Virus record (IMG/VR): IMGVR_UViG_2852309159_000005
Coordinates: 53,414 to 73,413 of that record
Source of the DNA: an uncultured virus (IMG/VR IMGVR_UViG_2852309159_000005)
Taxonomy: Duplodnaviria > Heunggongvirae > Uroviricota > Caudoviricetes
Length of the DNA: 20,000 nucleotides
Direction: 5' to 3' (one strand)
Shown here piece after piece: positions 454 to 20,000 of this stretch. Below the pieces are notes generated by a model, which had not been told where the DNA came from, did no database searches, and saw nothing but the letters and a program-made list of their open reading frames with translations. The number at the start of each line of letters is the position of its first letter. Position 1 is the stretch's first letter. Made by a program: the position numbers and the translations under genes.

Positions 454-483
454 TTGCACTTATGGGTAATTGTTGGCTATAGT
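454..483 (+). promoter_or_regulatory. Sigma70-like promoter of the c4/icd operon
   Basis: TTGCAC (454-459), 18-nt spacer, TATAGT (478-483), directly before the c4-like RNA. Confidence 0.55.
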
Positions 484-488
484 GATCA

Positions 489-568
489 GGCACTAGCAAA
501 ATCTAGTGTCAGAATTGGCGTTCTGAATCAGTTACTGGCGACACATGACGCGCCTTGCGTCTTTTTTT
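489..568 (+). ncRNA. c4-type antisense RNA (P1 c4 / P4 CI-like immunity RNA)
   Basis: Hairpins CACTAG-CAAAAT-CTAGTG (491-508), TCAGAA-TTGGCG-TTCTGA (509-526) and GACGC..GCGTC plus T7 (547-568). TTGGCGTT and AGTTACTGG are complementary to downstream AACGCCAA (676-683) and CCAGTAACT (662-670). Confidence 0.75.
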
Positions 569-759
569 GTGTCCATGCCTACGCACACCCATTAAATGCG
601 GTATTATATCGCGCTGAATCTATGGTGGCGGCAGCAGAGCAACCGAAAGGTTGGCTGGATTCCAGTAACTCCAGTAACGCCAACTCTACTGTCGTCACCA
701 CCCCCGAAATTGGCGTTTCAAGTGGTGACTCCTTAACTAAGTTACTGGAGATCATCGTT

Positions 760-951
760 ATGATGGCAACCCCTACCCACACTCAATTCAAATTTTTGTT
801 TCTGAGTATTAAACGCTCAGATACAACCGCTAAACCTTGTCGTATTGCTGTTACAGCATCGAATGAACACGATGCAAGACTGATGCTTGTACGTGATTAT
901 ATCCTGTCATTCGCTGGTCGCTTACCTGCTCAGGAGGTGGCTCATGCGTAA
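760..951 (+). CDS. Icd-like host cell division inhibitor (C-terminal part of the ash-family ORF 454..951)
   Basis: GGAG RBS at 747-750, ATG 760. MMATPTHTQFKFLFL...ASNEHDARLML.RDYILSFAGRLP fits the Icd-like/Ash pattern downstream of c4 RNAs. Confidence 0.75.
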   Translation: MMATPTHTQFKFLFLSIKRSDTTAKPCRIAVTASNEHDARLMLVRDYILSFAGRLPAQEVAHA

Positions 952-3315: not shown

Positions 3316-3660
3316 ATGATAACGAAGAATTTTAAAGTTAATTCACTAGCGAATAGCTACGCAGCCGCTATTTACCACGATATTACCACACGTAATGGCG
3401 GTGATTGGTTTTCGATGAAGGTAGGCAACAAAACGATTGAAGTTGCCATTATTGACGGTGTGAAAGGTATTCGAATGCTCGTTGATAGCTATTTGCTGAA
3501 AGCCTTAAAGGGGCAATATCCCACATGGGAGGCAGTTGCTATTAGCTTGATAGAGCAATGTGTCATTAATGGATATGTCACAGGTTATGGTCGAGAGGTG
3601 TGGCAAAGCATGATTAATGATATGGGCGACTCTTTAGCTGATAAGGGGGCGTTTCAATGA
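3316..3660 (+). CDS. Hypothetical protein preceding the primase, 114 aa
   Basis: AAGGA RBS; ATGA overlap with the primase gene. Confidence 0.7.
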   Translation: MITKNFKVNSLANSYAAAIYHDITTRNGGDWFSMKVGNKTIEVAIIDGVKGIRMLVDSYLLKALKGQYPTWEAVAISLIEQCVINGYVTGYGREVWQSMINDMGDSLADKGAFQ

Positions 3661-6405
3661 AGCCGATTGATGTTATCCGTGAGGTGAAGCTGAAAGCTAA
3701 CGGACAATGGCAAGCTATATTATCTCACCTTGAGGCAGAAGTGCCCCTAAACACGCACACGGCTTGCCCTCATTGTGGTGGTAAAGACCGGTTTAGATTT
3801 GATAACAAGGACGGTAATGGCACGTTTATTTGTAATCAGTGCGGTTCTGGTGATGGATTAGATCTCGTTCAGCGTGTGTTAGGTGTCAGTGTAACCGAAG
3901 CTGCAAAAGAGGTTGCTAACATAATTGGTATTGATACCCGTTCAGCGTGTCCACCAGCCTACCGTCGTTCTGAGATAAAAGCACAACAAGACGAACTGAA
4001 AGCGCAGCAAGCCGAAAAACAAGCTAACGAGAAGAGAGAGAAGCATAAACGCTTTATTGAACGGTATAACCGCACTATTGCCAATGTTCAACGTGGGAGA
4101 TCTGACTATCTCAAGGCTAAGGGGCTGCATGGTTTTGAAATGGATTTATTACAGGACGGTTCTCTTATCATTCCATTATTGGACGCTGGTGGCGTTATTA
4201 CTGGCGCACAAACTATTAAGCCTAATGGTGATAAGCGTTTACTGTCAGATAGCTCAAAGTCAGGCAGTTATTACCCCATCAATGAGCCTGTAAACGTCTC
4301 TACGGTGATTATCGCTGAAGGATTAGCAACCGCCCTAACGTGTCACTTAATCCAACCAGAAGCGCACACAGTTGCGGCAATTGATGCGGGAAACCTCATT
4401 CATGTAGCTAAGGTAATGCGAGTTAAGTATCCAGAGAGCAAGATTATTATTGCTGGGGATAACGATATTAAGCCAGACCAAGACAATACAGGGAAATTAG
4501 CGGCAGAAAAGGCAGCTAAGGCGGTTAATGGTGTCGCAGTTTTACCCCCAACTGATGATAAAGCCGATTGGGATGACTACCGCCTATCACACGGTATTGA
4601 GGCGGCAAGACAGGCATTTAATGGCCAAGTGGATCAGCAAGCAGGTGAAATAGTGGAAGAGAATAACGTGATCCACATTGACGCAAAAAAGAAAGTCAGA
4701 CCTGACGATGACTTAGCCCCATTTTTTGATAAGCGTCATGGTGGTTTGTATTACATCGAACGCAAGCAAAACAATACGACGGGCGAGATTGACGAAAAAG
4801 AAACGTGGTTTTCGGATGAAATGGCTACGGTAGGTATTGGCTCTGATGGCAAAGACAGCTATTTAGTTATCGAGATGAAGCAAGAAGGTAGCAACCGCAT
4901 AATTTATGAAGCCATTCCGAGACGTGAACTAGGTTCGCCTCAAGGGTGGGGGAGGTTACGCTCCCGTGGCGTTAATATTACAACAAAGCGTGGTCAATTG
5001 GATTTATTAGCTAACTACCTTCAACGGAAAGGAAAGCGCGACGAATGGACGATCACACATACCGCAGGTTGGCATGATGGAGCGTATGTGATGCCCGATG
5101 GTCATATTATTGGTACACCTAGCCGCCCTGTTGCCTTTTGCGGCGGAACGTCTGCCGTTGCGGGTTATATCGTCAGGGGAACCGCTGAAAGCTGGCGGAA
5201 GAATGTCGGTAATTTAATGAAAGGCAACCAATCTATGATTTTAGGTGGTTTAGTTGCGTTAGCTGCCCCACTGAACTCATTATCGGGCGGTAGCTCGTTT
5301 GGCATTCACCTATTCGCTCAATCCTCAGCAGGGAAAACAACTACTGTAGAAGCGGCTTCAAGTATCTACGGTGTACCCGATGAACTGAAATTAACATGGG
5401 ATGCGACAAAGTACGGGTTAACGATTGAAGCCGCCTCTCGAAATGATGGATTTATGCCAATTGATGAAATTGGGCAGGGTAACGATGTGCGGCATGTGGC
5501 AGGAAGTGCCTACAGTTTATTTAATGGTACAGGGCGTATTCAAGGTAATAAAGACGGGGGAAACAAAGCCGTTTTACGTTGGGCGATTGTGGCGTTATCA
5601 ACGGGTGAGGAAGATTTTGAAACTTACCTCATTCGTAATGGTGTTACCCCAAAAGCAGGGCAATTAGTGCGACTGGTGAGTGTGCCATTTACCGATACTG
5701 TCGAGTTTCACAGCCTTGATGATGGTGATTTGCATTCACGAGCAATAAAACGCGCATCAACGCAGCATTGCGGGGCAGTTGGTAGAGCATGGATTGAGTA
5801 TTTAGCCAACAATCAGGACATGGCCAACCAGAAAGTGACCGTCAAAGAAAACGAATGGTTATCGAGTTTACCCGAAGAGGCGTCACCACAGGTTAAGCGA
5901 GTCCGCTACCCGTTTTGCCATGTTAGACGCTACCGCAGAGCTATCAGCCTCAATTACGGGTTGGGATAGTGGCGAATGTAGCCGATTTATTCGTAATAGC
6001 TTCAATGAATGGCTAGAGAACTATGGCACAGGAAACCGAGAAAAATATCAAGTCGTTAAACGGGCAAGGGATTTTATTCAACGCTATGGATTAAATCGCT
6101 TTCAGCCATACACCTATGGGAAGCGCAACGGAGATTTAGACCGAGTTTACGCAGGAAGAATAACAAACCTTGCGGGTTACTTGGTTTCTGGTCGCAGAGA
6201 GGACGGCAAGGACGAATATCATATTATCCCGTCAGTATTTGAAGATGAAATACTCTCAGGTATTCAAAAGAAATTGGGGGCGGAAGCGCTCGAAGAGGCA
6301 GGTATTTTAGTCAGACCGGAATCAGGGCGTGTAGACGGTAAAACTATCAGCATTAATGGTAGTCAGCAGCGATTTGTTGTCTTAATTGATAGCGAGGAAG
6401 AATAA
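3657..6405 (+). CDS. Primase-helicase (P4 alpha-type Zn ribbon, TOPRIM, DUF927 helicase), ~915 aa, split by an apparent +1 frameshift at 5903-5904
   Basis: CPHCGGKDRFRFD...CNQCG zinc ribbon; EGLATA, AGDND and DWDD TOPRIM motifs; Walker A-like AQSSAGKTT and IDE Walker B. Removing one C joins ORFs 3657..5969 and 5920..6405 through KRVATRFAMLDA. Confidence 0.9.
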
Positions 6406-6444
6406 CCAGCCAGAACAGAATCCCCGTGATGAATTAAAAACGTT

Positions 6445-6686
6445 GGGATAAGTGGGATAACGGGATAAGAATTAAAAAAGATAATAATATTATTAAGTTA
6501 AGTTACTTCTATTTATCCCATGTTATCCCAAGTTACCCCAAATCAAATGATAATAATTTGTTACAAATGTTAATCAAAAAGCAAAGTTATCCCAAAAATA
6601 AAAAGTCTGGGATAAGAAATCGAGGTGTTTGGGATAAGTTAACTTGATGATATTAAATGAAAATAAGCAACTTATCCCGTTATCCC
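6445..6686. repeat. Iteron-containing putative replication origin
   Basis: GGGATAA at 6445, 6454, 6462, 6609, 6631; TTATCCC at 6513, 6523, 6587, 6672, 6680; variant TTACCCC at 6533. AT-rich spacers, directly after the primase gene. Confidence 0.8.
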
Positions 6687-6724
6687 AAAGAAAAATCGTT
6701 TTTCGCCTATAGAGAGATATTTAA

Positions 6725-7163
6725 ATGAGCACTCAAATACTCACACTAAAACGTAAAAAATCCACCAGCAACGAACACACCAAAAAGCTTGCAAACTAAA
6801 ACGCCACAGGAAGCCTCGCAGCAACCGAAGAAGAAAAATAAGGCAGATGTTCACGCGAAGAAGAAACAACACCGTATTGACCGTATAGCGAAGCACTGGA
6901 CGATATTTAATGAGCCAGAGGCTAAACCACTGATGATAGGTATCAAGGAAGTCATGATTGCTGAGGTTAAAGATAAAGGGTTGGATATTCCAGAGAGCCA
7001 TATTAAACAGGGATTACGATCATACATTAGTCGTAAAACCTATCTGAAAGCCCTTACTCTGGGCGGTAATCGTTTTGATATGAACGGGCAGCCTAAAGGA
7101 GAAATCACACCTCAACAACAAGCATTAGCAAAACAAATGCTGGTGGAATGGGGGAGACAATAA
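6725..7163 (+). CDS. ProQ/FinO-domain RNA chaperone with apparent +1 frameshift in the A6 run at 6755-6760
   Basis: KPLMIGI...LRSYISRKTYLKAL..GGNRFDMNGQPKGEIT is the FinO/ProQ core. ATG 6725 joins ORF 6789..7163 if one A is removed. Confidence 0.85.
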
Positions 7164-7266
7164 ATAAAAAATACCGCCAGAGCGTGAGCAAAGGCGGTCA
7201 CTAGAAGAAAAAATGTATAGACATAGCCTTCCTATCCTAATATCAAACAACAAATAAGTCATCAAA

Positions 7267-7286
7267 AACTGGTTATAAATACAGTG
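7267..7286. promoter_or_regulatory. Putative LexA (SOS) box
   Basis: AACTGGTTATAAATACAGTG is CTG-N10-CAG with an AT-rich core, close to consensus TACTGTATATATATACAGTA. A perfect TATAAT lies at 7315-7320. Confidence 0.65.
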
Positions 7287-7370
7287 TGTTGATTTAAATT
7301 TATACCAGAACAGTTATAATGTTTCACAATACGCAATGAATTAATAAATTGATGCAAAAGGTGAAATGTT

Positions 7371-7548
7371 ATGAGCCAATCTCAAAAAAAACATTCAGTC
7401 ATTCTTACCCCGTCACAATCTGAGCTATTGAAATTTTTGTTACCCCAAAGAGCAAGCAAACAACCCTAGCCACAGAAAAGTAACGTTACATAGTATTGCA
7501 CGTAGAGCATTAGATATAGGTTTAGATATGATGCAAAAAAATCATTAA
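7371..7548 (+). CDS. Small (~58 aa) putative DNA-binding protein with a net +1 frameshift near 7434-7450
   Basis: AAGGTG RBS. MSQSQKKHSVILTPSQSELLK continues in another frame as EQANNPSHRKVTLHSIARRALDIGLDMMQKNH*, ending just before the chaperone RBS. Confidence 0.5.
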
Positions 7549-7557
7549 GGAATATTT

Positions 7558-7899
7558 ATGACAGGAAAATTTATTCAACAATTTGAGCGTAAAAATGCCA
7601 TCGTGAATATAAATACATCGGATGGCATAAAGTCACTTGCTGTCGTGTTTCGTCTCCCCAAAGACCCTAATACACAAAGTTATCTTCGAATGATCCAGGC
7701 TATTCCTGAAATGTCACCTACGGAAATTTTGCTTGAGGTTATCGAAGCATGGGAATTTGATGAGTCGCTTAACTCAGCCAATATGACTAAGTTGATTGAT
7801 AATTGTCCTCAGGCCGCATTTGCCATCATGGAAGCGTTTGGGCGTTTGATTCATTCTCGTGAAATACAACAAATCTGGGGGCAAAAATGGCTGATGTAG
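7558..7899 (+). CDS. Phage tail assembly chaperone (Phage_TAC_4-like, gpG analogue)
   Basis: AAGGA RBS. EILLEVIEAWEFDESLNSANMTKLIDNCPQAAFAI fits the L.E.I..W...d.fn..Nl..Ll.nyP.A..AI pattern of siphophage chaperones; sits immediately upstream of the TMP gene. Confidence 0.7.
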   Translation: MTGKFIQQFERKNAIVNINTSDGIKSLAVVFRLPKDPNTQSYLRMIQAIPEMSPTEILLEVIEAWEFDESLNSANMTKLIDNCPQAAFAIMEAFGRLIHSREIQQIWGQKWLM

Positions 7900-10896
7900 C
7901 AACAATTTCGCTTGAGGTGAGAACGTCTGACTTAGAGCGCGGTACGCAAAAGTTAAAAGAGTTTGGAGATACAGCCGAAAAGGTGAGTAGTTTCTTCGCG
8001 AAATTTAAATGACCAGTTTAATAAAGGGGTTGGTCACCAAAAAAAAATTTCTGATGTAATAAAAAAGCAAAGGGAAGAATTTGATAATTTACTTAACTCG
8101 ATAAATCCAACCAATAAAGCGTTTCAAAAACTAGATGAATGGCAAGCTAAATTAGCTAGCGCTAGCAAAAAAGGTATTTACCCAAGTGATGAGATTGCAA
8201 AGTATAACGCCATACTTGAGCAGACTAGAGATAAATTAACACGAGTTAATATGTCCCTTACTGCTGAAGGGCAGGCGCTATTAGCTCAAGAGGCGGCAAC
8301 AAATAGAGCTAAGCGAGCTGCTGATGATTTTTTAAATTCACTGAAAAATCAAACTGAAATCATAGGAAAAACGAGGACAGAGATTTTAGAGTTAAAAGCA
8401 GCACAACTTGGTGTGTCGCAACAAGCCGCGCCGATGATCAATAAGCTAAAAGAGCAAGAAAAAGCCTTTATGAATGGCTCAATTACCATTGGCCAATATC
8501 GAAACGCTATGCGGCAATTGCCAGCCCAAATGACAGATATTGTTACGTCATTAGCATCAGGAATGCCTGTTTGGATGGTGATGATACAACAAGGGGGGCA
8601 GATAAAGGACTCATTTGGTGGTATAGGTAATTCATTGAAGGCTGTAACTTCATTAATCACTCCGTTAAATGTAGGGCTTGCTGCCGCTGCTTTAGCCGTG
8701 GGAGGTTTGAGTTATGCGACATTCAAAGCCCAGATGGTACAGGAAGCCTTTAACCGAGCATTAATAACATCAGGTAAGTATGCTGGGCTTTCTCGAGGGG
8801 AAATTATTGGTTATGCGAACACCATTACTCAAGCTGGGCTAAGTGCTGATTCAGCCACAGAATCACTTACTAAGCTATTAGACGCGGGGTTAAAAATAGG
8901 TGTCGACATTGGCAAGGCTGGAAATGCTATTGCGGAATTTTCCCGTTATTCAGGTAAAAGCATTGATTCGCTTGTCTCGCATTTTGCACGATTATCTAAT
9001 GATCCGTATGGTGGTTCTATTGAACTAAATAAACAGTATCGCTATTTAAGCGCTTCTGTATTACAGCACATTAAAGAACTAGAAGACCAAGGAAAGACCA
9101 CGGAAGCCGTAACATATGCTACTGACGCATTAAGTGGAGCGATGGCAGATCGCGCAAATGAAATACGTTCAAGCATGGGGACACTACCAAGCTTTTTTGA
9201 TGAGATTGGACGTGCTGCTAATAAAATGTGGGATTCGGTGATGGGGCTTGGTGCTGATCCTTCCAAAGCTGAACGATTAGCTAAACTAGAACAACAAATA
9301 AAGTTTGCTAAATCTGATCCTCGGAGGGGTACAGATAAAAGAAAAGGGCTTTCTTATAAAGATGATAAAGAATTGGAACTTCTAGAAAAGGAAAGGGATG
9401 AGTTACTAAAATCAATTGAAGCTGATAAAAAGGCAGCAGAACTCCAAGAGCGTAGTATTAACAACCAAGTATATTTTAATCAACTGGTTGATAAAGGCAC
9501 AGATAATGCCGAGAAACGCAGGAGGGAGCACGAAAAATTAAATAAAGCTATACAGGATAATATTGAGCTAGCGAAAAAAGGTGAAGTCAAACTCTGGACA
9601 GATGAACAAATAAAAATGGCCAGAGAAGGAATTGATAAAGCTTTTAAGGATCCGGTTAAACGTAAACCGACTTTTCATAAAGCTGCTTTTGCAGGAATGC
9701 GCCGTGATGAAGGCACTCAAAGTCATGTCATTGCGTTAAAAGCTGAGCTTGAGATGTTGAGTCAAGAAAGCCGACATATAGGCACAATTAGTCAGCAACG
9801 TAGGGCATTATGGCAAGAGCAAGCTAAGTTTCAAATTCTTGAGCAAGCCAATAAAGAACGAACACTGAGCTTGGAAGAACGAGCCTTATTAGCAAGAAAA
9901 GACTCAATATTGGCAGAAAAAGAAAAGGCCGCCAGTATTGGAGATCAGATAGAGCAACAGAAACAGTTAAATCAGTTACGTTATTCCAATGATGACCTTA
10001 AAGCTGAGATCGAACTACGCAAAGCAACGATAGGAATGACTAACGAACAAATAGCACAACAAAGAGAACTACTCAAATTAAAAATGGAGTGGACTAAAAA
10101 AGGAGGGGCTGAAACGGATGAAGAATACCTACGTGGTGTAGATTTAATTCAGGAAAAATATGAAACAGAAAGCTGGCTACGTGAGCAATGGCGCGAAGGA
10201 GTTAAGAAAGCATATGCAGAATATGTGATTAGTGTTACAGATGCAAATGCGGCAGCACAACAATTAACTAAACAAGCTTTTGATAGCATGACGGGGGCAA
10301 TGACTGACTTTCTAACGAAAAGCAAAGCTAGTTTTAAAGATTATGCTGCTAGTTTCTTTAATTTGGCAACAAAAATGATCGTCCAGCTTACAACGATAAG
10401 AATGTTAGAGGCTGGGCTTGGTGGTACAACACTTGGTAATTTTTTAGGGATAAAAGGGCATGCCACAGGTGGCTATACTGGTGATGGTGGTAAATATGAC
10501 CCCGCAGGTGTAGTACATAAAGGCGAGTTCGTCTTTACCAAGGAAGCAACGCAACGACTAGGTGTGGATAATCTCTATCGACTAATGGATGCAGGAAAGC
10601 GAGGTTATGCTTCAGGTGGTCATGTCGGTGGTTCTGCTCCAATGTCGGTTATACAGCCAACAGCATTTATCGCCCGCAATCCTCAAATTGCTGGTGGTGT
10701 TAATGTCAATATCAACCTTGGAGGGATTAATGTTCCCCCTCAAAACGGTGAGAGGGAGCGATCATCAAATAGCGGTATTAGCAGTAGCCAAGCAGATAGG
10801 TTATTTAAAAGCAAATTAAGAAAGTTTGTTGAAGAAGAAGGTAGAGAAGGGGGATCATTAGATTTATTGATAAAAACAAAAGTAAGACGTTTTTAA
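7887..10896 (+). CDS. Lambda-family tail tape measure protein, ~1002 aa, with apparent +1 frameshift at TTT 7991-7993
   Basis: ATG 7887 with GGGGG RBS gives MADVATISLEVRTSDLERGTQKLKEF. The 8251 frame is open back to 7987. Motifs QLPAQMTDIVTSLASG..QQGGQIKDSFGG and ATGGYTGDGGKYDPAGVVHKGEFV; long coiled-coil character. Confidence 0.92.
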
Positions 10897-10958
10897 TGTG
10901 TAATTGCTAATACTACTTACAAAGTTATAATTAAAGCTAAATAGTGAATAAAGGGTTA

Positions 10959-11432
10959 ATGATGAAAAAGTTACTGTTTGGCTTTATTTTTTCTTTGATA
11001 TGTTCAACTCCTGTATTAGCAGGGTGGCAGTATACTACTGATGTGGATGAGATGAGAGGGAATACATCCTATTATGGTGTGTTATCTAATGAAACTAATT
11101 CAAAACTAGATGATGAGAAATTAAATATTATTTTGTTTAGCCCTGATGATGAATTAATTACCTCCATGGAGATACAAACACTTAAATCACCAATTAACTG
11201 TACTAGTTCTAATTGCAAAGCCTTAGTTAAATTTGGAGATAATCCTATAGAAACTATTTTATATGCAGTGGTAACTCCAGAACGCAATTTTATTGTTCCT
11301 ATCGAATATATGGAATTTGTAAGAAAAATAAAAAATTCAGAAGTGGTTTATATTGAACTCCCTATTGAAGGCAAGGGAACACAGCAGTTTAAATTCAAAA
11401 CAGCCGGCTTAAAATGGGAAGTAGAGCAATAG
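10959..11432 (+). CDS. Exported protein of unknown function (moron-like)
   Basis: Signal peptide MKKLLFGFIFSLICSTPVLA, a Cys pair (CTSSNC), AT-rich sequence, TATAAT upstream at ~10926. Confidence 0.8.
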   Translation: MMKKLLFGFIFSLICSTPVLAGWQYTTDVDEMRGNTSYYGVLSNETNSKLDDEKLNIILFSPDDELITSMEIQTLKSPINCTSSNCKALVKFGDNPIETILYAVVTPERNFIVPIEYMEFVRKIKNSEVVYIELPIEGKGTQQFKFKTAGLKWEVEQ

Positions 11433-11954
11433 CAATACCTCATCATTTCATCATTGGCTGAATTTTATTATTTGATGAGTTCAGCCTCTTACTTATCTGC
11501 ATTATTAAACTAATATCCTATCGTGATAGCTTTCTGTTATTAAGATAACTAGAGCTTAATATATTTAAAAGGGCAGAAATCTGCCTTTAACTTAGATACT
11601 TTCGTGAACAGTACGCGCGTGGAAGGAAATATGCAAAAAACAACCAAAAAGAAACCAACCATTATTTTTATGATGTACCGACAATGCGCCTAATTGTGAC
11701 GTGTGAACAATCCATCAACATTCACATAAGAGCCGATAGAGTAACAGGGGCAATCATGAGGAGTTTGTGAGGCAAGCAATCATTGAGAAGCTAAAAAAAG
11801 CAACAGCACAAATAGCTAAATCGCTATATGTATGTGTAAATAACTTGGTTATAGCTATATATATTGTGTTTACGTTAAAAAAATAGACAGGTAATTACAA
11901 GCTCATAATGATTAGCCCCTAGACAAGATAAATATATTCAGTATTATTTATCTC

Positions 11955-12024
11955 AACAGTGCCCCTCATAACCTCTACGTAGAACGGAGAAATCTGGTTT
12001 GCGATACGTTTGGGGCTTTCTTTT
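11955..12024 (+). ncRNA. Candidate structured RNA leader or RNA antitoxin upstream of the Abi gene
   Basis: GCCCC (11961-65) pairs with GGGGC (12012-16) followed by TTTCTTTT. Inner AACC/GGTT stem and TCTACGTAGA palindrome. Possible promoter TAGACA (11920) / TATTAT (11942). Confidence 0.45.
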
Positions 12025-12054
12025 ATCTACTATCTGATAATTTTCCATGCTGCT

Positions 12055-13050
12055 ATGCACCCTCTAAAACCTCATCTAACGTATTTTGACCAAATAAAAA
12101 AGCTAGAAAAACGAGGAATGAGTTTTGAGGATCTACCTCCTGAGCAGGCGGTAAAGAAAATAATGAATATTGGATATTACAGGCTATCTGGGTATTGGTA
12201 TCCATTCCGTAAGTTAAAGTTAATCCCACCAGTAGCACCCGATGAAGCCAGACGCGAAGAAACATTCCTTGAGGGTACAACCTTTACAACGGTATACGCA
12301 CACTATTTATTTGATGTAAAACTAAGAAGTTCTATTTTTTATGGAATAGAACGAATTGAAACTTATCTTAAAGCAAAAATAGCTTACGAACTAGGTAAAG
12401 TATCCCCTACGGCATACAAAGATAAGAATATCATCCAATACAGACATCACTACCGACATGATACATGGCTAGAAAAGTTAGATTCTTTAATAGAGCGAAA
12501 TAGTGATAAAGATTGTATACGATGGAATTTAGATAAGTATGGGGATATTCCTATATGGGCTATCGTTGATATTTGGGATTTCGGTACAATGTCTCGCTTC
12601 TACGGAATGCTTGAAGATAAATACAAACATCAAATTTGTAAATCGCTTGGCTTTCTAAAGCCTAACTCAGCAAATGTAAGAGATGGACTGAAAACAGCAT
12701 TAGAGCATCTTAATACAGTTAGAAACAGGTGTGCCCACCATGCGCGTTTATGGAATACCGATTTTTCAGACTCAAAAATTAGCATCGATGTGTTAGATAA
12801 TATTGATTTAACAGCCTCGCGCTTGTCTCCAAAAAGCCCTGAACTATCAAGAATGGCAGGTATCATATTTTTAATATGGAGTCTGACCAAGAGAATAAGT
12901 TGTAATTCTACATGGCTAAGTTCAGTAAATGATCATTTAGAAAAACATCAGGGCGTTATTCCGTTTAATTCAATGGGATTCGATAATAACAATATCTCAG
13001 GATTAAAAAATCTATTGGATAAGGAAAAAGAACAATCAGCCCAATCATAA
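12055..13050 (+). CDS. Abi family (Abi_2, AbiD/AbiF-like) HEPN ribonuclease, probable phage defence
   Basis: KP.LTY.DQI..L..RGM, IGYYRLSGY, IERIE, PIW...WDFG.MSRFY and the HEPN motif RNRCAHH. Likely start is ATG 12055, not TTG 12010. Confidence 0.9.
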   Translation: MHPLKPHLTYFDQIKKLEKRGMSFEDLPPEQAVKKIMNIGYYRLSGYWYPFRKLKLIPPVAPDEARREETFLEGTTFTTVYAHYLFDVKLRSSIFYGIERIETYLKAKIAYELGKVSPTAYKDKNIIQYRHHYRHDTWLEKLDSLIERNSDKDCIRWNLDKYGDIPIWAIVDIWDFGTMSRFYGMLEDKYKHQICKSLGFLKPNSANVRDGLKTALEHLNTVRNRCAHHARLWNTDFSDSKISIDVLDNIDLTASRLSPKSPELSRMAGIIFLIWSLTKRISCNSTWLSSVNDHLEKHQGVIPFNSMGFDNNNISGLKNLLDKEKEQSAQS

Positions 13051-13285: not shown

Positions 13286-13705
13286 TTAGCTAACCAGCTT
13301 GTCAGTAATATCTTTATGGCGCTTCCACGCTGAATAAATATCTTTATCCCACGCTTTACCTGCCTTAGTTTGATAGCCTGCCTCATTAATTCGTTCAGCA
13401 ATAATGCGCCCATTGGTTACACCCTCAGACAGCACAGAATTAACCACAGAAACAACAGTAGACTCATTATAGGTATACGGTGGGATATCTGCCTTACCAG
13501 CAATTAAAGATGCCACAGACGATTCTAGGCGCTCCACTAGCGACAGTATGCGAGCGTCAGGATTACTGTCTGGACGGTTTAACTTCTCTTTGATAGCGGA
13601 GACTATCCACGCTGTTTTATCGCTACCAGAGTTCGATACAGCCTCATTAAACAGGGTTTGTAGTTCAGCAGGGAGACGAAAGGCAATAAGATTAGATTTA
13701 CTCAT
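13286..13705 (-). CDS. DNA-binding protein (N-terminal ribbon-helix-helix-like, C-terminal recombinase-type HTH-like)
   Basis: IAFRLPAEL...DKTAWIVSAIKEKL and IAERINEAGYQTKAGKAW; AAGGA RBS. Confidence 0.7.
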   Translation of the reverse strand: MSKSNLIAFRLPAELQTLFNEAVSNSGSDKTAWIVSAIKEKLNRPDSNPDARILSLVERLESSVASLIAGKADIPPYTYNESTVVSVVNSVLSEGVTNGRIIAERINEAGYQTKAGKAWDKDIYSAWKRHKDITDKLVS

Positions 13706-14704: not shown

Positions 14705-15229
14705 TAGGTCGCCTTGAAATTAAGGGGACGTGAGGCTCTGAAATCGGAGGCTCGTCACTGGCTGGCAATATTCCAATAATGGCTACGAGGTAAAAGTAAC
14801 CACAATGCAAATAAGCACTCTGGATAAATATCAATAAGTTATCTATGCTGAGAGATAAGATTACAACAAAGAGCGACGGCAAGATTACGGCAAGGTATTA
14901 ACAATCAGGTTTCAGTCGGTCAATTTGACCGTTAGCAATAAAAACAATGTGTTGCCAACTCTTACCATTGGTCACTGAAACGATGACCAATGAGCGTTAA
15001 TCTGGTTTTGTTACAGAATTAAGTATTATCAATCAGTTGTATTTTGATTCCGTCGATTTACCGGAATTAAGTATAATCAACAGGTTATATCTACATACGG
15101 GATAATCCCGTATCATCATGGATAAATTAACGTTTAGATCACCTCTATAAGTTGGAATTATTATCCGATCTTCCAAAGTCCAATCAGCATTTTATTTTAG
15201 TCGATGGCTTATATTGTGATGGTATCAAG

Positions 15230-15959: not shown

Positions 15960-16055
15960 GGGGGCATAATTGGGGGCATGATACAAAATTGAATGAAATT
16001 AAGATGTTTATAATCAATGTCATACGTCGTTATATTGAATCCTGTAGGGGTACCA
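15960..16055 (+). other. Right attachment site: integrase arm repeats plus core resembling a tRNA 3' end
   Basis: GGGGGCAT x2 (15960, 15972), typical of P4-family integrase arm sites. TTGAATCCTGTAGGGGTACCA (16035-16055) resembles T-loop, acceptor stem and CCA; possibly tRNA-Arg, not certain. Confidence 0.7.
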
Positions 16056-16486
16056 TTTAAAATCAACACCTTATGCGATTTTTAAAAAAATCTGCGAGAT
16101 ATGCGGGTCAAGTAACGGGTCAAATTAGCATTACCATTTTTCACTTCTAACCCACTCTTCATAGACATGCTCTGGCTAATCTAAAAATGTGCCGGCTTTC
16201 GTTTTTTTGTGGTTTTGGAAACTCCTTTCTCTTTGCATACATTCTCCATGACGTAGTTTTTACTTTTCTCTGTCAACTAAATTGGGCTGTGTTGATAACA
16301 GTATTGAAACGCCACTCGACGTTAATAAACAGTCACTTATTTGGAACGACTCTGCAGTTATAGAGGACGGTTCTATTCTCGTGAGAATACGTGAGATAGA
16401 AGAAGCACAGAAAGCGGAAAAAATGCAGACAGAAAGAAGAGGAAGAAAGCTAGGATAGCATAAATAACATTCATTCATATTAATAT

Positions 16487-18506: not shown

Positions 18507-19084
18507 TTAGTCGCCAATCAATGAGGTAAAAATCTTCTGATAAATTGCACGTACAAGGCTCTGTTTTTTCAGGTTATAATCTTGAGTCGTCTTTACATTA
18601 TGCTTAGCAAGCTGTTTAATCGCCGCATAATTGGCTAAATCATCAGGATGTGTTGTTAACCATTGCTTGAATAATAGGTGGCGCCAATGTTCGAGACAAT
18701 TTTTTTCCAAATACATGTAAGTTAACCATCGGATTACTCAGTTTAAGCATACGGTGCTGATACCATGAAGGCTCACGAATAATGAGTTCATAGCCCAATG
18801 CCTCTAATTGAGGAATATAAGATGATTCATCTTTAGGATTTTCTATAATTAAATCGATATCAATTATTGGCTTAGCAGCCAATCCTGCAACCGCAGTAGA
18901 TCCTATGTGCTCAATTGATAATGCTATATCTGACAATGCATTCTGAATTAACGATTTTTGTTCATTAAATTGTATAAGCCAATTAGGATTATGGGGGACA
19001 ATTTCAATGTGTATTTGGGCAGGTTTCCCTTTAACCCAAGGGTTTTTCCGTCGGATCACCTTCTTCAAAAGTGCAAATATCCAT
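18507..19084 (-). CDS. GrpB (UPF0157) nucleotidyltransferase-like protein with two apparent +1 frameshifts (T5 19043-19047, T7 18700-18706)
   Basis: IEHIGSTAV.GLAAKPIIDID, NLHVF, HLLFKQWL..HP...YAAIK and Y..KK motifs. Corrected start reads MDICTFEEGDPTENPWVKGKP. Confidence 0.85.
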
Positions 19085-19225
19085 TTTTTGTTGTGGTGTA
19101 AATTGATCTTTAAACATGACAATATCTAATCCCATAAAATATCAAAATTAACATGTTAGGTAATGATGTTACTATTATCACTTTTACCTAAGAGCTGTAA
19201 ATCGATAGTTTATTAATATTGACAT

Positions 19226-19274
19226 AAAAAGATAATCACAATACAAAAATTAATTTCATTATATTGTGATTATC
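19226..19274 (-). terminator. Second copy of the hairpin terminator after the DUF1120-like paralog
   Basis: GATAATCACAATA (19231-43) and TATTGTGATTATC (19262-74), same stem as 16492-16530. Confidence 0.6.
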
Positions 19275-19289
19275 AATTATTTTTTAGGT

Positions 19290-20000
19290 TTAGACACCAA
19301 AGTTAAAAGTGAGAACAGCCTCGCCGATAAAATCTAATCCGTTAGAAATATCTATGCCTTTTTTATTTAATGAATCTTTAGATAAAATAAATGCAGAAGA
19401 TGCTTTCCCTGCTGAAATGCTGGTAGAAAAAATCTGACCTGGCATTAAATCTAAACTATTTTTATCTACATTTTCTTGTTGTTTTGTCGTCCAACCATTA
19501 GTGACTTCTTTAACTATAACAGTTTTATTATCTGAAAAACCTACCGTTGCATCATTTGCCCGGCTAATAAATGCGGGTTTTCCATCTACAGTCACATTGT
19601 ACCAAACGAATAGTATTCCCCCCACGGAAGTGTCTACCTGGTCTTTATTAACCAGGTGAAATATCCCACTAGCTTTAGTTTTACTGGTTTGATCAAGATC
19701 AAGCTGACTGTTTACATAAGTATCAGTGGCTTTAAATGTAAGATAAGTGTTTGCATCGCATTCAATAGTGACGTTAGTCGAGGTTGTATTATGAGGATAT
19801 ATATAATTTGATGATTTAGGGATCAACGATGGACTAATTTTACCTAAATCAAAAATAACATCACTTTGTGTTGCGCCATTAATAGTACAAGTTGGTGGTT
19901 TGATATCACCATTGATTTTCAAATTAGCGATAGGCGTTTTAGCCAATACTGGCGTTGATATTACAGTCAGCATAACAAGACTGAGTAATGTTTTTTTCAT
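19290..20000 (-). CDS. DUF1120/fimbrial-subunit-like exported protein, 236 aa
   Basis: Signal peptide MKKTLLSLVMLTVISTPVLA, Cys pair (PPTC...ECDA), beta-rich body; paralog of 16545..17241. Confidence 0.85.
   Translation of the reverse strand: MKKTLLSLVMLTVISTPVLAKTPIANLKINGDIKPPTCTINGATQSDVIFDLGKISPSLIPKSSNYIYPHNTTSTNVTIECDANTYLTFKATDTYVNSQLDLDQTSKTKASGIFHLVNKDQVDTSVGGILFVWYNVTVDGKPAFISRANDATVGFSDNKTVIVKEVTNGWTTKQQENVDKNSLDLMPGQIFSTSISAGKASSAFILSKDSLNKKGIDISNGLDFIGEAVLTFNFGV

Follow-up and report, generated by a model that had tools for sequence, protein, structure and literature searches.

For a long time, phage satellites were believed to interfere with nothing but heads and packaging. Reprogramming of tails was first shown in 2026, for the PLE satellites of Vibrio, and its benefit and selectivity are still unexplained. 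According to the part of that report available to us, PLEs encode their own tape measure protein (TMP) and tail assembly chaperone (TAC), some of them also a baseplate hub, and chimeric tails were shown (Nature 2026, PMC12987554); PLE-encoded TMPs are present in PLE virions, and deletion of tmp cuts PLE transduction by 96–99%. Here we describe a cassette of tail genes on a small mobile island of a Proteus-type genome, in a stretch of 20,000 nucleotides (the window), which comprises bases 53414–73413, the final 20 kb, of the 73,413-base IMG/VR provirus record IMGVR_UViG_2852309159_000005. The cassette (window 7371–11432) consists of a small ribbon-helix-helix (RHH)-like open reading frame (ORF) and the genes for a 113-aa chaperone, a 1002-aa TMP and an exported 162-aa protein. 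On balance, we think it probable that the cassette is the tail module of a satellite-like element and that its TMP is used in chimeric tails of helper siphophages. If this is true, the family extends tail reprogramming to temperate lambda-like siphophages of Enterobacterales.

A satellite-encoded TMP with its chaperone had at first been taken to be described for PLE11 but not for enterobacterial PICI-like elements, and the claim of novelty made on this ground is out of date. As far as the accessible sections of the sources go, the F5 elements of Escherichia coli, which are satellites of SUSP1, possess a TMP, a baseplate gene and a serine recombinase (bioRxiv 10.64898/2026.10.15.759431), some phage-inducible chromosomal islands that form capsids (cfPICIs) have predicted tmp genes (PMC12987554, Extended Data Fig. 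10 legend) and EPIPs of Mycolicibacterium carry a TMP (PMC12822802). TMP-bearing satellites are thus already known, and what is added here is the switching of cassettes and the presence of helper-matching ends around a private core. Going by the same sections, F5 has in common with our element only the TMP criterion: its serine recombinase uses the tonB–yciI site and replication genes occur in 2.7%, whereas in the present element a tyrosine integrase at a tRNA-derived site is accompanied by a primase and a TMP of siphophage type. cfPICIs and EPIPs, as described there, also encode capsid or head–tail proteins, of which this element has none.

The likeness to PLEs is closer. As in those satellites, an element without tube, sheath, fibre or tip genes encodes a TMP and a small chaperone; two interchangeable types of tail genes occur within one satellite family; and the best match of the 113-aa protein among solved structures, a weak one, is the PLE1 TAC. 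The backbone, in contrast, is unrelated (P4-type integrase, AlpA, DUF927 primase and ProQ), and neither a baseplate hub nor an Rta-like gene could be recognised in the element. Its helpers are likely to be temperate lambda-like siphophages, whereas the PLE helper is the lytic myovirus ICP1, and the TMP is about 50% identical overall to that of the presumed helper class, with near-identical ends, compared to 20% for PLE11.

With Gram-negative PICIs the element shares an integrase–AlpA–primase island at an att site and an accessory slot just downstream of the primase. However, it is longer (about 19.8 kb versus the usual 10–15 kb), its slot holds a TMP cassette, with a bona fide structural gene, rather than a small inhibitor, and no Tai homologue or recognisable packaging-redirection gene was found in it. 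Its likeness to P4 is confined to AlpA and to an integrase of P4-type architecture; no ORF of the element had a PHROG or Pfam match to Psu, Delta, Sid or Eps. The cassette itself recalls lambda gpH in its TMP_2 and Tape_meas_lam_C domains, its length of about 1000 aa and the small chaperone gene directly upstream, but differs from lambda in having no T extension or slippery site, no M, L, K, I or J downstream and a chaperone of an apparently orphan family. Literature searches on this satellite family in Proteus returned nothing, and the literature on phage-inducible chromosomal islands of P. mirabilis, judged by titles, included nothing on this element.

Element boundaries and gene content

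Pfam and PHROGs were run on 26 ORFs of the window, and the remaining 53 kb to its left were annotated as well (Table 1). The record begins with a complete siphovirus prophage (1–49.3 kb). To the right of it, a tRNA 3' remnant is followed by a second integrase gene and then by genes for AlpA and a Rha-like regulator. Because the core of this remnant recurs at the other end and the second integrase is only 24% identical to that of the prophage, we delimit a distinct element of about 19.8 kb (record 49.66–69.47 kb). Relatives occur alone in records of 22–24 kb (L139, L140 and L142) or, in Providencia (L130), with a 64%-identical integrase that adjoins an intact tRNA-Ser(tga).

IMG/VR calls the entire 73 kb one provirus, and the cassette might accordingly belong to the neighbouring 49-kb prophage, with record 1–69 kb as one phage, or owe its position to an assembly artefact. 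The same prophage class adjoins the element in three of five other composite records, beside both cassette types, and in the prophage itself the genes for portal, TMP (278 + 723 aa), an L-like protein and J look split, although these splits fit homopolymer insertion errors of the kind seen in the window. We consider this explanation extremely improbable: a second integrase, AlpA and a tRNA-derived att remnant lie between the two, the prophage already has a full tail module with another type of TMP, the element is found by itself in the 22–24-kb records and beside tRNA-Ser in Providencia, and contigs of four independent runs cover the junction from primase to cassette. A full set of head and tail genes, which the first-pass annotation had held would speak against a satellite, does therefore literally lie to the left of the window, but these genes belong to a separate tandem prophage. 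Provirus callers merge such islands into adjacent prophages, as in this record, which is relevant to annotation.

Across the whole element, the ORFs of at least 200 aa are limited to those of the integrase, the Rha-like regulator, Ant, the primase, the TMP and AbiD; since all are assigned, a hidden capsid, portal or large terminase gene is impossible. None of the traits of cfPICIs (own capsid, portal, protease or head–tail connector) was found, and neither Pfam nor PHROGs recognised any head, packaging, tube or tip gene, or any match resembling terS, Ppi or Rpp, in the element. Among the 26 window ORFs, those of the chaperone and the TMP were the only virion genes that these searches identified from the primase to the right att remnant. 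The original description of these two as the only virion-related genes, without capsid, portal, terminase, tube or tip, holds up against Pfam, PHROGs and the ORF list.

Conservation and switching of the tail cassette

The TMP matches Pfam TMP_2 (E = 2.2e-60, 204.4 bits against a cut-off of 30.2), Tape_meas_lam_C (E = 8.6e-14, 51.8 bits against a cut-off of 23) and phrog_24 (E = 6e-233). It does not lie inside a tail operon: genes for the exported 162-aa protein and AbiD follow, whereas the prophage homologue L083 has a series of tip genes. The chaperone gene is immediately upstream and overlaps the TMP start at 7887 with its last 13 nt. In Pfam, its product scored 36 bits with Phage_TAC_4 (cut-off 21.1, E = 9.1e-9), although the alignment covers just part of the profile (positions 74–117 of 124). 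Using an AlphaFold2 model (pLDDT 79.7), we obtained six matches in BFVD at E ≤ 1e-3, four of them named 'Tape measure chaperone' and derived from Klebsiella, Enterobacter and Serratia phages (E = 1.4e-4 to 7.7e-4, TMq 0.54–0.64). Foldseek gave nothing against the PDB at E ≤ 0.001, with the HK97 TAC (2ob9) ranked fifth (E = 0.83); in an all-against-all structure comparison, the PLE1 TAC (5ir0; identified as such in the available part of PMC12987554) came first (Z 4.6), YqbN second (4.5) and 2ob9 fifth (3.5), all of them weak matches. An indexed sequence search with the chaperone returned five clusters and an exhaustive HMMER search over 1.8 billion representative proteins only its own cluster and three spurious long proteins, and the protein appears to form an orphan family.

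The chaperone gene contains no in-frame X_XXY_YYZ heptamer, and its −1 and +1 frames are closed save for the last 37 nt leading into the TMP, so that it encodes a G-only chaperone without a T extension. Programmed frameshifting in this gene was rejected for lack of a slippery heptamer, and fusion of chaperone and TMP by a −1 slip in the 13-nt overlap was dropped because L131 has a 16-nt gap there.

The window's copy of the TMP gene is interrupted at 7991 by one extra T in a T run, which raised the question of decay. This base is one of four single-nucleotide insertions (5903, 6755, 7443 and 7991), all in homopolymer runs, that break the primase, ProQ, small ORF and TMP genes. All four bases are lacking (4/4) in contigs of four public runs, each from a different study, whose sequence is 99% or more alike over the greater part of 3600–11500. 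The TMP ORF is uninterrupted in these contigs and in P0001–P0004; P0001, a 97% identical homologue of 1002 aa with 54 members on 21 contigs, reads through the 7991 point. It is likewise intact, together with the primase, ProQ, small ORF and chaperone genes, in L005, a 95–97% identical copy of the element from another IMG/VR record. Rather than a real lesion, as had been feared, the 7991 frameshift is most likely an assembly error private to this record; programmed frameshifting at this position was rejected on the same grounds, as the homopolymer insertion is absent from 4/4 other runs. The insertion at 5903 splits the primase here into 770 + 161 aa (3657–5969 and 5920–6405; 915 aa in L005), and that at 6755 disturbs the 5' part of ProQ (145 aa in L005). 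Read through the extra base and compared to L005, the TMP gave a dN/dS of 0.217 (76 synonymous and 62 non-synonymous changes) and the primase one of 0.185. The TMP is under purifying selection.

A search with the primase yielded 18 loci, 8 in species-representative genomes and 10 in IMG/VR (L138 is the same record as L005). Throughout the family, the gene to the left of the tail cassette is conserved as ProQ/FinO (30–100% identity), and in 13 of the 18 loci it is directly followed by a 112–113-aa gene and a TMP gene. Only one of these is of the window's type: by tblastn, the window's chaperone, TMP and 162-aa gene were found in L138 alone among the backbone loci. In the other twelve, ORF maps revealed a trio of 112–113, 908–1111 and 121–123 aa, corresponding to phrog_19131, a TMP of the phrog_1107/TMP_3 type and phrog_5 ('tail completion or Neck1'); L147 ends within the TMP, so that its third gene is unreadable, and in L146 the third gene comes after an extra 98-aa ORF. 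The first-pass annotation had proposed conservation of DUF927 primase, TAC and TMP together, and dN/dS, as checks; the locus is filled in most relatives and dN/dS is low. On its concern that the TMP might be absent or decayed in relatives, 5 of the 18 loci have no cassette and in one (L130) the TMP is split.

Cassettes differ between elements that are otherwise almost the same. Compared to the window, L139, L141, L142, L144 and L145 have 98–100% identical integrase, p198 and p114 and 99.7–100% identical AbiD but a different cassette. Primases also differ among elements with 98–100% identical integrase, p198 and p114 (59% identity between L139–L145 and the window or L005), indicating that replication modules are exchanged no less freely than tail cassettes. 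In the other cassette type, the tail-completion gene is 55–66% and the C-terminus of the TMP 54% identical to the prophage class that adjoins the element in the record. In those prophages some 8 kb separate the genes for TMP and tail completion, and their order is the reverse; the other-type cassette was therefore assembled rather than left over from a deletion.

The window's chaperone and TMP are also paired outside these loci. No TMP in species-representative genomes was more than 51% identical to that of the window, and its 66–76% identical relatives (P0005–P0008) are known to lie beside the chaperone by adjacency or common contig only. An 82% identical chaperone homologue, named 'phage tail assembly chaperone' by NCBI, and a 76% identical TMP homologue have adjacent protein accessions in two Providencia alcalifaciens assemblies, and two further pairs share contigs of 7,745 bp and 4,348,488 bp. 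Chaperone and TMP travel together across diverged lineages, with intact pairs at 59–82% identity for the chaperone and 72–76% for the TMP.

Mosaic tape measure proteins and their use on helper tails

In sliding windows, P0001 is 86–100% identical to Proteus prophage TMPs in residues 1–50 and 101–250 and 60–100% identical in residues 51–100, compared to 10–44% in residues 251–850 and 74–86% in residues 851–950. Applied separately to 40 listed prophage loci by tblastn, the three parts gave 76–94%, 27–31% and 54–87% identity. Summarised over both comparisons, P0001 reaches 83–100% in residues 1–250 and 67–87% in about 851–950, and roughly the first 250 and the last 150 residues of the protein correspond to TMPs of resident lambda-like Proteus prophages. 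All of these loci except the short L042 have K and J homologues, and tblastn found the satellite ProQ and chaperone in none of them. The mosaic boundary coincides with a hydrophobic segment at about residues 252–275. Between the window and L005, dS of the TMP is 0.40 in codons 1–200 versus 0.035–0.10 elsewhere, and the identity of L005 to P0001 is only 88% N-terminally, compared to 96% for the core; the N-terminal part has therefore been exchanged with prophage alleles. In the Providencia homologues P0005 and P0007, the core is mostly 66–94% identical (40% in residues 451–500 of P0007) and the N-terminal part 42–84%.

The other TMP type has the same kind of structure. Residues 651–1085 of the L139 protein are 62–100% identical to four prophage TMPs (88–100% to L165), whose loci carry tube, K, I and J genes, while residues 1–650 are 8–66% identical. 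Between Providencia L131 and L139 the pattern is inverted, with 80–94% identity in 11 of 12 windows of residues 51–650 (40% in 401–450) and 17–64% in the C-terminal part. Both TMP types are mosaics, with prophage-like ends, or one such end, and a satellite-private core that is kept between Proteus and Providencia satellites.

Could the chaperone and TMP be an inert leftover of a captured lambda-like prophage, conserved in appearance only through youth? The close relatives are indeed young (94–97% identical), exchange with prophage TMPs is evident, the window's copy is frameshifted and the L130 TMP is split. We nevertheless regard a relic as very unlikely. The frameshift is among four homopolymer insertions private to the record, dN/dS is 0.22 and intact pairs persist in other lineages at the identities given above; the same slot in 12 further relatives holds a different, custom-assembled tail cassette, and the prophages that share these TMP ends lack a counterpart of the chaperone.

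Since the ends of the TMP match those of resident viruses, the protein is probably built into tails borrowed from these viruses. Taken together, the filled locus, the helper-like ends around a private core, the dN/dS and the adjacency of chaperone and TMP argue for a selected function on helper tails, and the cassette appears to be selected, modular and tuned to resident siphophages. The earlier proposal that the TMP acts on helper siphophage tails thereby gains comparative evidence for a selected function, which leaves room for both a swapped-in and a poisonous subunit.

In the mechanism that we favour, a helper siphophage would first be induced. The private chaperone would keep the satellite TMP soluble, and the helper-like ends of the TMP would be accepted by the tail-tip complex and tube of the helper. 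Because the satellite chaperone has no T part, the G-T chaperone of the helper would probably accept these ends too. Satellite-carrying particles would then have chimeric tails, in which the private core would alter behaviour after adsorption, through either the route of DNA entry or escape from exclusion and tail-targeting defences. Satellite status, helper identity, virion incorporation and benefit are all inferred in this scheme.

The first-pass annotation had also suggested a change of tail length as the purpose of the exchange. However, the TMP (1002 aa) is just 22–26 residues longer than TMPs of the helper class (976–980 aa), which at 0.15 nm per residue amounts to an estimated 3–4 nm. 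A gain in length is thus an unlikely benefit, and action of the private core after adsorption is the more likely one.

The cassette could instead serve interference or defence, with the satellite TMP or chaperone entering helper tail assembly and yielding dead-end or non-infective tails. Helper spread would thereby be reduced, an effect that Tai systems and PLE11 Rta achieve by other means, and the satellite would benefit through protection of its host population. Helper-identical ends with a foreign core have the look of a dominant-negative subunit, swappable AbiD cargo lies nearby and the chaperone is without the T part that in lambda G/G-T recruits the tube protein. The cassette also occupies the position just downstream of the primase, and in PICIs, according to the available part of PMC11364771, Tai tail-assembly inhibitors sit in this place, next to pri. 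On the other hand, a poison would have no need of a private chaperone inherited along with it, or of a 600-residue core that purifying selection maintains across genera, and no PADLOC model matches the cassette proteins. The other cassette type adds a tail-completion gene 55–66% identical to that of the prophage, which points to building, and the satellite requires tails for its own transfer. The PLE precedent, as far as the accessible part of the report describes it, is of a satellite TMP that is used and not merely inhibitory (PMC12987554). Overall, we judge interference to be unlikely.

Several points weigh against use of the TMP in chimeric tails. Excision, replication, packaging and helper dependence are all deduced from sequence; Pfam and PHROGs recognised no cos or pac site or small terminase in the element, and no helper was identified. 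The neighbouring prophage is not an obvious helper for the cassette, because its TMP is of a different type (phrog_1107). A dominant-negative role fits the mosaic equally well, and helper-identical ends could be explained by homologous recombination alone, with no need for compatibility. The chaperone call combines a partial Pfam match with matches of a predicted structure, and those to solved structures are weak (Z 3.5–4.6); in the other cassette type, the 112–113-aa gene has no chaperone fold or family, as BFVD and PDB searches were uninformative and the best structural scores (up to Z 5.7) were to unrelated helical domains. Moreover, the window's own TMP copy is frameshifted, the L130 TMP is split (395 + 736 aa), and the cassette is missing from Xenorhabdus L132, Photorhabdus L133, Morganella L134, L136 and L137, of which L136 and L137 share little beyond the primase.

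An extension of the chimeric-tail reading, which we hold only tentatively and think rather improbable, is that this satellite family of Morganellaceae retargets between helper classes through plug-in cassettes, in which the private core reprograms entry and the ends are kept matched by gene conversion. The TMP would combine helper-matching docking ends with a private core that starts at a membrane-active hydrophobic segment. Satellite particles could then inject into helper lysogens guarded by TMP-directed superinfection exclusion, which would be exactly the cells that a satellite needs to reach, and continual gene conversion with resident prophages would keep the docking ends matched to local helpers. 

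With two or three cassette types on near-identical backbones, the family also provides a naturally dissected TMP, in which helper-docking ends can be told apart from a private core. This bears on which TMP segments dock to tip and tube, what the chaperone recognises and whether the core determines the specificity of DNA entry.

A further parallel concerns RNA. The PLE small RNA SviR binds helper TAC and hub transcripts, according to the part of PMC12987554 available. By analogy, it is conceivable that the ProQ/FinO protein encoded next to the cassette gives the element an RNA-level hold on helper tail genes.

Sequence runs gave related observations on the TMP. In X3 and X4, both from isolates, the helper-like TMP segments (8020–8634 and 10507–10637) coincide with contig breaks and increased word depth, which fits a second, prophage-borne copy in the same genome. 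In one X4 contig, 8642 is followed directly by 10468, so that 1825 nt of the TMP core are missing; the assembly may have passed through a homologous TMP of a prophage, or the contig may stem from a deletion variant.

Feature coordinates and flanking genes

Table 1. Features of the satellite-like element and of the adjoining prophage. Positions are those of the window unless marked as record positions.
Feature	Position	Strand	Evidence and remarks
Prophage	record 1-49.3 kb		Integrase at left edge, Q antiterminator, lysis, terS, terL, portal, scaffold, capsid, tail completion, tube, own TMP (phrog_1107), L/K/I/J tip genes, fibres
Left tRNA 3' remnant, 45 nt	record 49641-49685		Directly 5' of satellite integrase; att copy 49662-49684
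Satellite integrase	record 49848-51059 (left of window)		P4-type tyrosine integrase; Arm-DNA-bind_3, Phage_int_M, Phage_integrase
Ash	454-951		Pfam/PHROGs
DUF4222, ORF6N anti-repressor (Ant)	after Ash, left to right		Pfam/PHROGs
Conserved proteins of 198 aa (p198) and 114 aa (p114)	between anti-repressor and primase		
DUF927/Toprim primase	3657-6405	+	Pfam DUF927 5.9e-43, Toprim_3, Zn_Ribbon_Prim; phrog_1139
ProQ/FinO-family RNA-binding protein	6789-7163	+	Pfam ProQ 8.7e-17 (L005: 3.4e-17); final backbone gene before cassette
Promoter-like site TTTAAA-16-TATAAT	7293-7320	+	10/12 matches; ahead of cassette
Small ORF, 58 aa when intact	7371-7548	+	Intact in L005 (9486-9662); broken here by 1-nt insertion at 7443
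Tape-measure (tail assembly) chaperone, gpG type, 113 aa	7558-7899	+	Phage_TAC_4; phrog_569 1.5e-9
Lambda-gpH-type TMP, 1002 aa when intact	7887-10896	+	Frame open 7987-10896; true start ATG 7887
162-aa protein	10944-11432	+	N-terminal hydrophobic signal-like sequence; final cassette gene; 100% alike in L005/L138
AbiD/Abi_2 abortive-infection gene	12010-13050	+	Pfam Abi_2 1.8e-50; PADLOC AbiD 7.4e-58
Right att remnant (tRNA 3'-end fragment)	about 16037-16058	+	Core of left remnant recurs here

The cassette had been described as a compact operon with its own promoter region. It is compact, and the promoter-like site in front of it is suggestive of a cassette promoter, although the promoter scan as a whole found 17 sites compared to 17.7 in shuffled sequence and hence no excess. 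Comparison by blastn of the region upstream of the cassette with the other cassette type and with prophages found nothing. The product of the 58-aa ORF looks like an RHH protein and had no match in Pfam, PHROGs or PADLOC. In the same position, the other cassette type has an unrelated 57-aa ORF; in both types this first ORF stands behind an AT-rich gap, and in L139 it is preceded by a terminator-like hairpin. The 162-aa protein was equally without a Pfam, PHROG or PADLOC match. The other cassette type is accompanied by a lipoprotein-like exported protein of 170–177 aa (L139 10763–11293), which is fast-evolving (37–100% identity between elements). Both of these cassette-linked exported proteins are candidate exclusion proteins.

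Downstream of the tail cassette is a swappable cargo slot, occupied by AbiD in the window and in five relatives bearing the other cassette type. In L005/L138 a pair of genes for 197-aa and 242-aa (weakly LRAT-like) proteins replaces AbiD (L138 18275–19944), and some elements have an extra 223-aa gene (L139 17416–18087 listed for the slot). AbiD is variable defence cargo outside the tail cassette; a few small genes follow it in the window. In the neighbouring prophage, genes for an AbiEii-like AAA ATPase and two anti-repressors lie between the tube and TMP genes.

Just inside the element ends, a 20-nt direct repeat, built of a tandem GGGGGCAT motif with a short spacer, occurs at record 49797–49816 and window 15960–15979; the two copies may be arm-type sites of the integrase. 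When the satellite and the neighbouring prophage were searched for common cos- or pac-like sequence, just two matches emerged, of 44 nt and 27 nt. The former (window 14799–14842, also L005 17579–17628) is 97.7% identical, in inverted orientation, to intergenic prophage sequence (record 19610–19653) between the Q-like antiterminator gene (record 18809–19312) and the late/lysis operon. This stretch may be a borrowed late-promoter or qut element reading leftward to a 139-aa RHH-like gene (13286–13705, minus strand), in which case the satellite would time some of its expression by the Q of that phage class.

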